A stretch of 43,678 nucleotides of DNA from a virus (Duplodnaviria; Heunggongvirae; Uroviricota; Caudoviricetes): positions 1 through 43,678 of IMG/VR virus record IMGVR_UViG_2531839668_000011, one strand, 5' to 3'. Positions 12,001 to 15,000 of this stretch are shown one piece after another. The number at the start of each line of letters is the position of its first letter. The stretch's first letter is position 1. The position numbers are program-made.

Positions 12001-15000
12001 GATAACGAATGGCATACGCTGGGCTTCCGTTTTGCCGGTAACAACAGTATTGAGGTGACGCCGGTCATTGATGGTAAGGACGGGACGCCGTTCATGCTGT
12101 CACAGTCACCGGTCGGCACGTTTACGGCAGACAAATTGCGCGTGACCGATATCACTAGCGGTGCGACATATCCGGTGCTGATTGAAAGTATAACAGTGGA
12201 AGTGAATAACCCGTAAGCAGGAAAAAAAGGCCGCCGGGGCAGGGAAAACAAGGAGCCAGAACCGGCGGCAAATGTCGTTATATCCAAAGCAAAACATGCA
12301 GGACACTTTTTTAACCAACAGGTATTAACGATGTCAACACCATATCAATAACCGGGAGGGATAATGAGATTTGTACAGCTTATTTTATTGTATTTCTGCA
12401 CGGTGGTGTGCACGTTATATCTGGTAAGTGGCGGGTATAAGGTTATCCGGAACTATATACGCAAAAAGATTGATGCCGCGGCGGCGGAAAAAATCAGCGC
12501 CAGCCAGTCAGCCGGAACAAAACCCGAAGAGCCTCTCATTTCGTAGCAACTTTCTTAACAACACCTTTCAACGAGAAAATCCCATGTCAGAAATAAAATC
12601 TCTGGTCACTGCTGAAGCAGTGAAGGACGTCCTGCGCTCTGAAGAAGTCAGAAGCGCACTGAAACAGCAACTCCGCCAGAATCTTGAGGCGCGTCTTGAT
12701 GCTGAAGTGGATGCCATTCTGGATGAGCTGCTGGGGGGATCCGTTCCTGATGTCGTACTTCACTCAGACCACTGACGGCAGAGTGAATCTGATGCATCAC
12801 AGGAAAGCCGGAAACACGAAGCTGGGGGAGTTCGGCGATTACGGTAACGACTGGCAGACGCTGGAGCTGGTGTTCACCGCCGGCAGTGCCACGGTTACTC
12901 CGAAACTGAATGGAGTGGCTGGCCCGGCATTCCAGGTTATAAAAGACAGTCTGACACTGGGACTGAATGCGCTGACGCTGACGGATGTTACAAAAAATGC
13001 AGCGTATGGCGTTGAGATAGAAAGTCTGATGCTGGAGATAAATGCACCGGCAGCATAATAAAAAAAGCCAGCGCCCACTCTGAAGGACGCTGGCTAAAAC
13101 GGGTAGATGTACTTCACATGATACTTATATTTGGCAGTACATTTTCTGACAGACAGTGACGGATGTTGTCAAGATATTGTGTCATTTATAACCTGAATCA
13201 GGGGTTGGTCGGAATGTTATCTGGCATTTTTAGCAGAGCCTGAATGCCATAATCACGGCTCCCGGAGTTGGCCGTCAGTGGGTGACACTGGCGGCTTTTT
13301 GTTTTCCTTTACTTTCATTTTCTGTCGGCGGTGACGGAGACATACATCAGATGGAAAAAATCACAACGGGTGTGTCATACACCACGTCAGCGGTGGGGAC
13401 GGGATACTGGTTACTGCAGCTGCTGGACAAAGTCTCTCCGTCCCAGTGGGTGGCAATAGGTGTACTGGGGAGTCTGCTGTTTGGCCTGCTGACGTATCTG
13501 ACTAACCTGTATTTCAAAATCAGGGAGGACCGCCGTAAGACGGCGCGGGGAGACTAAAGCGATGAAGAAAAAATACGAACTGGTTGTTAAAGAGATAAAT
13601 AATTACCCGGATAAGATTGCTGTTACTGTGGCACTTGAAATTGGCGGGCATCCGTCGTTGTTGTTGCCACATGTGGCGATTAGTCTTGACCGTACTGAAG
13701 GTGCCACGCTGGAGTTCTACGAAGCTGAGGCGAAAAAACAGGCGAAGCAGTTTTTCATGGATATTGTTGCCGGGTTATGCGAAGGGGATGAACCGTCACC
13801 GGAAAAGCGCCCCGTAATTTTAGATGCGCAGGATGTATTGATAACCTACAAAGGAAAGCTACCGGGAAGAATTACTTGTTCTCTGAAGATGCCGCCGTCA
13901 ACACTGCGGTCAGAAAAAGATGATGTTGAATCGCGTATTGAAAAACTGGAGTGCTATATCGCTGAATTGAAAAAAAGCACCCCAACAAAAAATGAGGTGC
14001 TTGCAGCAGACGAAATGAAAGAAGCTATTCCTGATCGCGCGGCGAATCTAAGCTGCGCTTCATGGTTGAAAGAGCATCTTCAGCAGCCTGAAAAAAAACG
14101 CCGCGATGAGCAGTTTGCTGCGTTTTACGATTATTGCCGGAAAGTGATGAGCAGAAATCTCGCAGAGTGTTTCAGTATTCATAATGATAATTTCAGTGAC
14201 CTGGAATGGGAGTGTAACCGGCCATCCTTTGTTGTATCCGGTGATGCTGGGAAAATAACCATCTCAGAAAATGGAAAAGTAACACCGCCATCGCACCAGC
14301 ATAGTGAGGAGCTCATTGAATTTGCCATTGATTACCTGAAGAACAATAAAAAGCAGGGGCTGATGAAGTGCATTGGTCGTTGCATGGGATATCTGCAGAT
14401 AGCTGCTGAGATTGAAGCGCTGGCCAGTGGTGCGGACAAGGATGCAGTTGTGCGGGAGGCTCTTCTTCGTGATTTTGATAATCCGCCCTTTAAAAAAGTG
14501 CCGGCTTACTGGTTTCATCCAGGACTGACTTATCTTAAAGGACGTATATAAGCTGGCTCGTTATCTGTTGCCGATAAATCCTGATAAATATCCATGAACA
14601 CCAAAATCAAATACGGCCTGTCGGCTGCCGTTCTGGCGCTGATTGCCGCTGGTGCGCCTGCGCCTGACATTCTCGACCAGTTTCTGGATGAAAAGGAAGG
14701 TAACCACACCACGGCATACCGTGATGGTGCGGGGATCTGGACCATCTGCCGTGGTGCCATCATGGTGGATGGTAAACCTGTTGTTCCAGGCATGAAGTTG
14801 TCGAAGGCAAAATGCGCTCAGGTTAACGCCATTGAGCGTAATAAGGCGCTGGCATGGGTGGAGAAAAACATCAAAGTGCCATTGACCGAACCACAGAAAG
14901 CGGGGATTGCGTCATTCTGTCCGTACAACATTGGCCCCGGTAAGTGTTTCCCGTCGACGTTTTATAAACGAATTAATGCAGGCGATCGCAGGGGGGCGTG

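Follow-up and report, generated by a model that had tools for sequence, protein, structure and literature searches.

A long-form YdfR (DUF1327) family gene between the holin and endolysin genes of a phage lysis cassette encodes a predicted two-domain protein

Introduction

YdfR of Escherichia coli K-12 (b1555), encoded by the Qin prophage, has recently been connected with host RNase E. By bacterial two-hybrid assay, residues 1-72 of K-12 YdfR were found to bind Rne(1-597), and Rne(1-598) was co-purified with Strep-YdfR together with DNase-resistant nucleic acid (PMC13232886). Overproduction of this short homologue caused no growth defect and changed only a few transcripts, and a contaminating protein was not excluded by the authors as the retainer of RNA (PMC13232886). 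Targeting of RNase E is a known phage strategy, as illustrated by Srd of T4, gp0.7 of T7, and Dip of phiKZ (PMC4980113). On the host side, RapZ is a two-domain adaptor that docks on RNase E's catalytic domain (PMC7430671). A gene intervening within the lysis cassette is not mentioned in the 2021 survey of Stx-phage lysis cassettes in BMC Genomics.

Here we analysed such a gene in a 43,678-nucleotide Caudoviricetes record (IMGVR_UViG_2531839668_000011, referred to as the window). An earlier note on this DNA had described a 329-codon open reading frame (ORF) as an unrecognised gene that interrupts the lysis cassette. We identify it as a long-form member of the YdfR family, and compare its organization and possible roles with those of the described systems.

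Results

Location of the gene within the lysis cassette

The features of the lysis region are listed in Table 1. The ORF opens with ATG at 13562, after the TAA stop of the holin gene (13555-13557) and the 4-nt sequence AGCG, and its frame is intact over all 329 codons up to the stop at 14549-14551, from which the endolysin ATG at 14594 is separated by 42 nt. A Shine-Dalgarno-like sequence, GGGGAG, is located at 13547-13552, 9 nt ahead of the ORF ATG and inside the last holin codons. The description of an intact ORF between the pinholin and SAR-endolysin genes, including both gaps, was thus borne out, as was the naming of the flanking genes, a PF04971 holin on the 5' side and a PF00959 lysozyme on the 3' side followed by Rz/Rz1. 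The endolysin starts with YGLSAAVLALIAAGAPAP, a Gly/Ala-rich segment, and the catalytic spacing E-8-D-5-T was read in its translation.

Table 1. Features of the lysis region in the window
Feature	Coordinates	Strand	Evidence
Class II (phage 21 S-type) holin/pinholin, 68 aa	13351..13557	+	Pfam PF04971 E = 1.4e-32; phrog_9876 and phrog_20 'holin'; PGAP 'class II holin family protein'
Long-form YdfR-family protein, 329 aa	13562..14551	+	ORF; Pfam DUF1327 E = 8.5e-39; phrog_1085 E = 2.5e-180
N-domain (DUF1327 core), aa 1-75	13562..13786	+	AlphaFold prediction; homology to K-12 YdfR
Variable linker, aa 76-221	13787..14224	+	Low pLDDT; indels and module swaps
C-module, aa 222-329	14225..14548	+	High pLDDT; conserved motifs
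R21-type (SAR-like) endolysin (lysozyme), 177 aa	14594..15127	+	Pfam PF00959 E = 2.6e-24; phrog_7 'endolysin'
Rz i-spanin, 155 aa	15426..15893	+	Pfam PF03245 E = 2.2e-47; phrog_13
Rz1 o-spanin, 61-aa ORF embedded in Rz	15646-15831	+1 frame	Lipobox-like LVVSAC

The product is predicted to be a soluble protein with a pI of 6.1 and no hydrophobic segment, the maximum 19-residue Kyte-Doolittle mean being 1.09. Neither a signal-like N-terminus nor a membrane, SAR or lipobox feature was detected by inspection of its start, MKKKYELVVKEINNYPDK, and by the hydropathy scan. The ORF is AT-richer than its neighbors, with a GC3 of 0.41-0.48 vs 0.58-0.67 in the flanking lysis genes. By consensus scan, we found neither an own promoter-like site on the + strand nor a convincing flanking terminator; a sigma-70-like + strand site was also absent between 10500 and 16500, within the limit that weak or non-consensus promoters can escape such a scan. 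Co-expression with the late lysis genes, as the earlier note had proposed, is therefore a reasonable inference, and the gene is probably transcribed at the start of the late operon and translated just after the holin. A search of Rfam over 12800-16200 gave no credible RNA element, the one match, to a rimP leader, reaching 29.9 bits where the gathering score is 47.

Assignment to the YdfR family

The 329-aa protein matched the Pfam family PF07041 (DUF1327) with 132.1 bits (cutoff 25), residues 1-100 being aligned with positions 1-88 of the 93-position profile, and it matched phrog_1085 over its entire length, residues 1-329 with positions 1-296 of 296 (E-values in Table 1). At least 999 public contigs carry exactly the same protein, which is named there 'YdfR family protein'. 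The ORF is a long-form member of the YdfR (DUF1327, phrog_1085) family, already catalogued and widespread in lambdoid prophages, and the label 'unrecognised' was wrong. It does not fit the canonical YdfR, a single-domain protein of about 100-115 aa, since it is 329 aa in length and residues 101-329 lie beyond the Pfam model.

The profile searches that the earlier note had suggested named the family, but neither these nor the fold searches gave a match that explains its function. All eight PHROG matches are annotated 'unknown function', and no PHROG of the 'lysis' category, or any other match to a known lysis accessory family, was among the results. No lysis, defence, structural or functional Pfam match that would explain the role of the protein was obtained. 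With NCBIfam, only chance-level matches below threshold were observed (HpnC and CdaM, E >= 0.065), and the defence models of PADLOC-DB v2 gave no family at E up to 1. The PDB sequence search with the whole protein detected nothing significant, the best being RBM41 at E = 0.4.

Predicted two-domain architecture

The first AlphaFold model, based on an alignment of E. coli sequences only, was poor (mean pLDDT 50), and the second model, for which Salmonella homologues were included, resolved two domains. In these models the 329-aa protein is predicted to consist of two folded domains, a DUF1327 N-domain and a C-module of about 108 aa, joined by a variable helical linker. The N-domain, modelled with pLDDT of about 60-88 in 10-residue blocks, is predicted to form three beta strands and, after them, a long helix, with a conserved C-x-G-E/D motif at the domain end; it is acidic, with a pI of 5.6. 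It is 41% identical to residues 1-74 of K-12 YdfR, the segment reported as RNase E-binding, and in sister long forms carrying the same C-module the N-domain is 84% identical to K-12 YdfR.

The linker is predicted to be helical or disordered (pLDDT below 50 over aa 70-215), and no match was found for it by Pfam scan. Indels and module swaps among the homologues cluster in this part, including an insertion of 33-38 aa (about aa 143-180) that is absent from the 296-aa forms. The C-module is modelled as a three-stranded beta meander followed by helices, with pLDDT of 76-90 over aa 220-300. Its conserved motifs are H-x-H, GRCMGYLQxAAEIE, and DxxNPPFK...W..PG..YLK, and the residues L259, G272, R273, L278, Q279, A281, P309, K311, W317, P320, and Y324 are invariant between E. 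coli and Salmonella. Only 30 representatives of the module were found among 1.84 billion proteins. Pfam scans of the C-module and of 19 of its homologues gave nothing, and PDB-sequence and fold searches with it gave nothing significant; the best profile match was a PhoU homologue at E = 0.022, for which no single domain was significant.

Four combinations of the parts were found in one and the same slot: the N-domain by itself or with the linker, the complete series of N-domain, linker and C-module, and the C-module by itself. Pairing of N and C recurs in Salmonella, with identities of about 25-30% (N) and about 40% (C), and includes one 192-aa form without the linker. The profile search with the N-domain detected only stand-alone or N plus C proteins, in Escherichia, Shigella, Salmonella, and Yersinia. 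Fusions of the N-domain to holin, ANT or Rz1 were considered as a domain-fusion clue and set aside, as they are a few singletons that look like gene-call artefacts. The family itself being already known, what is new here is the predicted two-domain architecture with its undescribed C-module.

Distribution and genomic slot

Part of the gene was matched in 2389 of the 5426 complete E. coli genomes (44%). A YdfR-family gene occupies this slot in 106 of the 369 phage records with this cassette type (about 29%), and in the Qin prophage of K-12 the order is essQ, 4 nt, ydfR, and then rrrQ. The interruption of the cassette, which had been taken as an oddity, is rather a common minority arrangement, and homologues in the holin-endolysin slot of other prophages, for which the earlier note had proposed to look, do exist in E. 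coli including K-12 Qin. Absence from closely related prophages, by contrast, had been named there as evidence against its reading, and such absence was largely what we observed: the holin (S) and endolysin (R) genes are adjacent and the YdfR-family gene is absent in 37 of the 52 sampled related cassettes (71%). Because these cassettes lack it, the YdfR-family gene is a dispensable accessory, not needed for lysis itself.

All E. coli forms, whether short, long or C-only, begin 4 nt after the holin stop and ahead of the endolysin. The Salmonella relatives instead sit between Q and the holin, from which they are split by a gene on the opposite strand, and the holins paired with them belong to two families, PF04971 and PF16080. 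At many loci a small convergent companion gene, phrog_1853, is present; it is absent from the window. The region from Q to the lysis genes also houses stx, nanS-p, and other morons. Judged from the shift in GC3, the presence/absence pattern, and the differing position in Salmonella, the gene is moron-like.

Selection and annotation

The ORF cannot be put down to chance: the probability of 329 stop-free codons is about (61/64)^329 = 1.4e-7 per start, identical copies are numerous, and Salmonella has homologues of about 40% identity. The dN/dS ratio was 0.14-0.56 across the homologous modules, less than 1 in each, and 0.14-0.43 for the C-module; all parts of the ORF are under purifying selection. 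In RefSeq (PGAP) only codons 1-112 are annotated, as a 'partial' incomplete pseudogene, and this holds for the source genome, NZ_CP051001.1, as well as for others; NZ_CP027548.1, also considered as the source, is collinear with the window only over 12739-16952. As the 'partial' label is given equally to the 296-aa and 268-aa forms, we consider it to be an annotation artefact.

Discussion

A possible link to RNase E and its alternatives

We tentatively propose, as a reading that is possible rather than probable, that long-form YdfR is a moron-like late accessory gene of enterobacterial lambdoid phages whose product, a cytoplasmic two-domain protein, acts via host RNase E. The best mechanism that we can offer, weakly supported at present, is that of a cytoplasmic protein, expressed late, which would modulate RNase E or serve as its adaptor. 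Late in infection, the N-domain would attach to the N-terminal, catalytic half of the host enzyme and so change RNA decay while the late genes are expressed and lysis occurs. The exchangeable C-module might bind a second partner, either RNA or a further protein, much as the adaptor RapZ does. The lead to RNase E lies in the binding reported for K-12 YdfR and in the resemblance of the N-domain to it. Family membership, architecture, distribution, selection and dispensability are established by the analysis; late co-expression, RNase E binding by the 329-aa protein itself and any effect on RNA are inferred. Several points stand against the RNase E model. The binding is known only for a homologue of 41% identity and only with overproduced proteins, the acidic N-domain is atypical of an RNA binder, and the C-module is without a detectable relative of known function. 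Moreover, a role related to lysis would fit equally well with the 4-nt coupling to the holin that is conserved in E. coli.

The latter role could be that of a cytoplasmic lysis-timing factor. The 4-nt coupling would keep its synthesis proportional to that of the holin, and it would act on the cytoplasmic tail of the holin or on the SAR endolysin so as to advance or delay triggering. A soluble factor of the antiholin type has a precedent in T4 RIII. The constant position of all E. coli forms is as expected of such a factor, and the K-12 ydfR deletion is a listed hit in a genome-wide screen for envelope permeability (PMC3879167 supplement; cited in PMC13232886); however, the phenotype of this Keio strain may have arisen because its kan cassette acts in a polar way on rrrQ, located immediately downstream. 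We regard a lysis-timing role as unlikely, given that 71% of the related cassettes function without the gene, that the Salmonella relatives lie upstream of the holin, behind an opposite-strand gene and beside holins of two families, and that the protein is without a membrane or SAR segment and without a 'lysis' PHROG match. The gene could otherwise be cargo for the lysogen or the phage population, inserted in a late-region recombination hot spot and encoding a superinfection-exclusion, abortive-infection or anti-defence factor. The AT-rich, moron-like composition, the extreme modular mosaicism with presence/absence variation, the location between Q and the lysis genes, and the convergent phrog_1853 companion at many loci are all consistent with cargo. 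This role nevertheless appears rather improbable to us: no PADLOC model was matched, the short K-12 homologue is not toxic when overproduced, and the companion gene is missing from the window. In addition, the consensus scan, within its limit for weak or non-consensus promoters, gives no reason to expect expression in the lysogen, as it detected no sigma-70-like site on the + strand between 10500 and 16500.

A decaying remnant or pseudogene, as implied by the RefSeq 'partial' call, would agree with the PGAP incomplete flag in the source genome and others and with the many truncated and split variants. This is highly improbable, and we rejected it on account of the intact frame, the dN/dS ratios below 1, and the at least 999 identical copies; the low ratio of the C-module, its residues invariant between E. 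coli and Salmonella, and its confident fold in the model point in the same direction.

Significance of the long forms

In itself the finding is an ordinary one: a catalogued family, of which nearly half of the complete E. coli genomes contain at least some part. Of the uncharacterised genes in lambdoid prophages, Stx-type ones included, this is nonetheless one of the commonest; in the late operon it neighbors the lysis genes and, in related phages, those for the toxin. The 2026 study of K-12 YdfR offers the first biochemical handle on the family, binding to the RNase E catalytic domain (PMC13232886), and the two-domain architecture suggests a directly testable adaptor model. Carried further, the long YdfR proteins could be a new class of RNase E adaptors of temperate phages, in which DUF1327 docks and the exchangeable C-module, whose fold has no recognisable relatives, recruits specific RNAs or proteins, a generalization that we consider quite doubtful. 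If it were true, host or phage RNA decay would be reprogrammed minutes before lysis, transcripts of adjacent late-region morons (stx in related phages) would be affected too, and convergent phrog_1853 might serve as partner or antagonist. As to annotation, the long forms are consistently mislabelled in RefSeq as truncated pseudogenes, and a conserved 108-aa domain under selection has no model, so that the real diversity of the family is hidden from comparative studies.

Comparison with known systems

With the known lysis accessories, i.e., the antiholins S107/S21-71, T4 RI/RIII, P1 LydB, Mu releasin, and the spanins, the window protein shares the location in the lysis cassette and the probable co-translation with the holin. 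It differs from them in having no lysis-category PHROG match and no transmembrane, SAR or lipobox feature, and its gene is dispensable in most related cassettes.

The likeness to T4 Srd, T7 gp0.7, and phiKZ Dip is a proposed one, namely that of phage proteins which reprogram RNA decay by binding or modifying RNase E; homology to these proteins was not seen in the Pfam and PHROG searches, an indirect and not a pairwise comparison. Srd, gp0.7, and Dip are early products of virulent phages, whereas the YdfR-type gene is probably a late gene of temperate phages. T4 Srd binds the catalytic N-terminal half of RNase E (PMC4980113), the region also bound by K-12 YdfR (PMC13232886). RapZ serves as a working analogy only: one of its regions contacts RNase E at the catalytic domain, and the RNA target is bound by a C-terminal domain distinct from that region (PMC7430671); it is a non-homologous, tetrameric host protein with a defined sRNA target.

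The closest relationships lie within the family. K-12 YdfR resembles the window protein in its N-domain, with a Pfam match far above threshold, and in its slot, 4 nt after an S21-type holin and upstream of a lysozyme gene; both proteins are soluble. It differs in being a 103-aa protein made up of the N-domain and a short helical tail, to which the window protein adds the 146-aa linker and the 108-aa C-module, and RNase E and RNA binding are reported for the K-12 protein only (PMC13232886). The long forms of phrog_1085, of 296, 287, and 268 aa in E. coli and of 225-338 aa in Salmonella ('hypothetical proteins'), share with the window protein both the N-domain and the C-module, including the C-module motifs. 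The window protein is distinguished from them by its extra linker insertion. The holin-endolysin slot of the window gene is also that of the E. coli members; those of Salmonella are placed between Q and the holin, with the convergent small gene next in line.

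Identity and layout of the gene

The 329-codon ORF between the holin and endolysin genes was identified as a member of the YdfR family. Residues 1-100 matched Pfam DUF1327 (PF07041) with 132 bits (cutoff 25), and the whole protein matched phrog_1085 (E = 2.5e-180). The exact 329-aa sequence was found on at least 999 contigs of a public protein collection, under the names 'YdfR family protein', 'Phage protein' (UniRef A0A0K4PT01) and 'hypothetical protein G2583_2458' of O55:H7 CB9615, and from 9000 to 17500 the window shows 100% identity with the E. coli O157:H16 str. 98-3133 chromosome. 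The view of the earlier note that the ORF had no family match was thus wrong. Nor is the interrupted cassette without precedent, because in the textbook strain K-12 the type member ydfR is located in the Qin prophage in the order essQ-ydfR-rrrQ-rzpQ, in the same cassette slot and likewise 4 nt downstream of the holin. The ORF is an already catalogued gene, the long form of a widespread family commonly found in the holin-endolysin slot.

The placement proposed in that note was confirmed, with the ATG at 13562, the stop codon at 14549-14551, and spacings of 4 nt from the holin stop and 42 nt to the endolysin start. A GGGGAG motif is present 9 nt upstream of the ATG. The N-terminus of the downstream lysozyme is Gly/Ala-rich, as typical for SAR endolysins. 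Consensus scanning of positions 10500-16500 detected no promoter-like site on the plus strand, nor was a convincing terminator found between holin, ORF and endolysin; from these results we reasonably infer co-transcription of the ORF with the late lysis genes.

Other features were observed nearby. Only one start is present in the window holin (...I-H-Q-M-E-K..., the -3 codon position being ATA), in contrast to the dual-start motif of related holins (M-Y-Q-M-E-K and M-K-S-M-D-K in comparison loci L005 and L006), and thus this allele may lack the longer antiholin isoform. The gap between endolysin (R) and Rz carries a hairpin and a hydrophobic 45-aa ORF (...WKFILIWLVFVIMASGYFIGQIRWW), annotated solely as hypothetical protein, which may specify a small lysis-region membrane protein; a sub-threshold rimP leader match overlapping the hairpin is most likely due to chance. 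Upstream of the holin, fragments occupy the place where related prophages hold an intact 617-aa SASA/NanS-p esterase, and the last ORF there (124 aa) ends with the esterase C-terminus, ...GVEIESLMLEINAPAA. Three tRNA genes and iraM lie between the DNA methyltransferase gene and the lysis region.

Coordinates of features in the window and in comparison loci
Sequence	Feature	Positions (strand)	Remarks
Window	Phage-borne tRNA genes (Ile, Arg, Arg)	10221-10470	Source-genome annotation
Window	iraM anti-adapter gene	10761-11096 (-)	Opposite strand; source-genome annotation
Window	Esterase-fragment region	11548-13058	Includes partial DUF826 gene (PGAP)
Window	Partial 'DUF6645' pieces	11548-12216, 12723-13058	PGAP
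Window	DUF1378 gene	12364-12546	PGAP
Window	Holin start motif	13342-13353	
Window	Class II holin, phage-21-type, 68 aa	13351-13557	Upstream neighbour; PF04971, E = 1.4e-32
Window	YdfR-family ORF, 329 aa	13562-14551 (+)	DUF1327 (PF07041), phrog_1085
Window	Part of ORF annotated by PGAP	13562-13897	
Window	Part of ORF left unannotated	13898-14551	
Window	Lysozyme, 177 aa	14594-15127	Downstream neighbour; PF00959
Window	rimP leader match (Rfam)	15194-15283 (-)	29.9 bits vs gathering score 47, E = 0.044
Window	Hairpin	15218-15250	14-bp stem, no clear T-tract
Window	45-aa ORF	15287-15424	Ends 1 nt before Rz start
Window	Rz with embedded Rz1	15426-15893	After lysozyme gene
L010	Convergent small gene	4807-5124 (-)	
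L012	Convergent small gene	4986-5303 (-)	
L004	Convergent small gene	3531-3845 (-)	
L008	Convergent small gene	4881-5141 (-)	86-aa ORF, no PHROG match
L003 (PhiR5_1)	Convergent small gene	3297-3557 (-)	86-aa ORF, phrog_2572
L014	Annotated codons 1-112	6063-6398	
L001	Annotated codons 1-112	9001-9336	
L015, L016	Annotated codons 1-112	1501-1836	

Modular architecture

Mapping by BLAST and alignments of 120 homologues showed a modular protein: an N-domain (module A, aa 1-75, or up to about aa 112 if its tail is counted), a variable linker (aa 76-221) into which 33-38 aa are inserted in comparison with the 296-aa forms, and a C-module (aa 222-329). Natural variants include proteins made of module A only (103-116 aa), of A and linker (183 and 211 aa), of A and linker followed by an unrelated C-terminus (305 aa) and of all three modules (268, 287, 296, 329 and 333 aa), as well as a form of linker and C-module (185-213 aa) whose separate start codon likewise lies 4 nt downstream of the holin stop. 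Two further E. coli variants, P0049 (207 aa) and P0057 (196 aa), carry two tandem N-domains, query residues 1-105 being aligned to residues 1-105 and again to 106-205.

When aa 106-329 were searched exhaustively with HMMER against 1.84 billion representative proteins, only 30 matches were obtained. The distant ones were all Salmonella enterica 'hypothetical proteins', with about 40% identity in the C-module. As these relatives also have a divergent DUF1327-like N-domain, in one 192-aa protein fused straight to the C-module without linker, the pairing of both domains is old and presumably functional, although either domain occurs alone. An initial AlphaFold prediction was of poor quality (mean pLDDT 50), but a second one that included the Salmonella sequences resolved both domains, the N-domain as three strands and a long helix (block-mean pLDDT about 60-86) and the C-module as a three-stranded meander with helices (76-90), the linker staying below 50. 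A cytoplasmic location is expected for the 329-aa protein, which has a pI of 6.1 and lacks hydrophobic segments (highest Kyte-Doolittle mean over 19 residues, 1.09).

Origin, selection and annotation

Compared with its neighbours, the ORF is markedly enriched in AT (GC3 of 0.41-0.48 vs 0.67 in the holin gene, 0.59 in R and 0.58 in Rz), a composition that is the signature of an inserted moron. The Salmonella prophage relatives are located between the Q antiterminator and the holin, not between holin and endolysin, and are paired with two holin families (PF04971 and PF16080). The conserved trait is a position at the start of the late operon beside the lysis genes, with no fixed holin partnership. 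At many loci a small convergent gene follows just downstream of the long YdfR-family gene, either phrog_1853 (105 aa; 46% identity between Salmonella and Stx2 phage 86 gp06) or an unrelated 86-aa ORF; the window has none.

Against five homologous genes, dN/dS (Nei-Gojobori) was 0.19-0.56 for the N-domain and 0.14-0.43 for the C-module, approaching 1 solely where non-homologous linkers were forced into alignment, and 11 C-module positions are invariant from E. coli through Salmonella. The gene is real and under selection. In the PGAP annotation only codons 1-112 appear, as a pseudogene ('YdfR family protein, incomplete, missing C-terminus'). The source genome and strain 2014C-3061 are both affected, as are genes of the 296-aa and 268-aa forms. 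The 180-217 conserved codons of the C-terminal part carry no annotation in at least four genomes, covering 329-, 296- and 268-aa forms. A decaying gene was rejected on the basis of dN/dS below 1 in both domains and the invariant C-module positions; the truncation is an annotation artefact and no evidence of decay. The systematic RefSeq mis-annotation of long forms and the two-domain architecture with a selected, hitherto undescribed C-module are modest additions.

Prevalence

Of 5426 complete E. coli genomes, 2389 gave a match to ORF DNA, and in 491 the match comprised at least 80% of the ORF. The holin-to-endolysin span was matched by 369 records of sequenced phages, 106 of which encode a YdfR-family protein (tblastn), all being Escherichia or Stx phages. 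Sixty of the 369 records were sampled systematically, and both holin (S) and R were present in 52; the two genes were adjacent (745-nt span) in 37, separated by the short form (about 112 aa) in about 11, and by longer forms in 4. The expectation that such cassettes are normally uninterrupted therefore holds for most, but the YdfR family interrupts about 29%. Functional phages exist with the gene (Stx2 phage 86, PhiR5_1, YYZ-2008 and BP-4795) and without it (Min27 and 933W-type). The YdfR-family gene is a dispensable accessory and no core lysis component.

Possible function

No match for the 329-aa protein was found in NCBIfam, PADLOC or PHROGs of known function, nor for linker and C-module in Pfam; PDB sequence searches with the whole protein and the C-module profile gave nothing significant, and the N-domain profile search revealed no informative domain fusion. 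Neither sequence nor fold ties a known function to the protein. The sole experimental information on the family concerns K-12 YdfR, of which residues 1-72 bind Rne(1-597), the N-terminal half of RNase E, in a two-hybrid assay; Strep-YdfR co-purifies with Rne(1-598) and with DNase-resistant nucleic acid, for which the authors consider a contaminating protein possible, and its overproduction is non-toxic and changes few transcripts (Göpel et al. 2026, PMC13232886). Identity to K-12 YdfR over the RNase E-binding segment is 41% for the ORF N-domain and 84% for sister long forms that share its C-module. We tentatively rank as the likeliest mechanism that the ORF product would be a late-expressed modulator or adaptor binding RNase E; confidence is low, since all steps are inferred for this protein.

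A cytoplasmic lysis-timing factor would agree with the 4-nt coupling to the holin, invariant in E. coli, and with the scoring of the K-12 delta-ydfR mutant in an envelope-permeability screen (PMC3879167 supplement), but that phenotype may reflect a polar effect on the adjoining lysozyme gene, and both the Salmonella context and the dispensability of the gene count against a dedicated holin partner. This role is considered unlikely. Even more doubtful is a defence or exclusion cargo: the absence of a defence-model match, of a detectable promoter and of toxicity stands against it, although mosaicism and base composition fit.

The RNase E-binding adaptor offers a concrete, testable hypothesis, likewise of modest added value. 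Phage proteins acting on RNase E are known: T4 Srd binds and stimulates its catalytic half, and the degradosome is inhibited by T7 gp0.7 and by phiKZ Dip (PMC4980113). The proposed two-part design would resemble that of RapZ, an adaptor of which one part docks on the RNase E catalytic domain and the second selects the target (PMC7430671).
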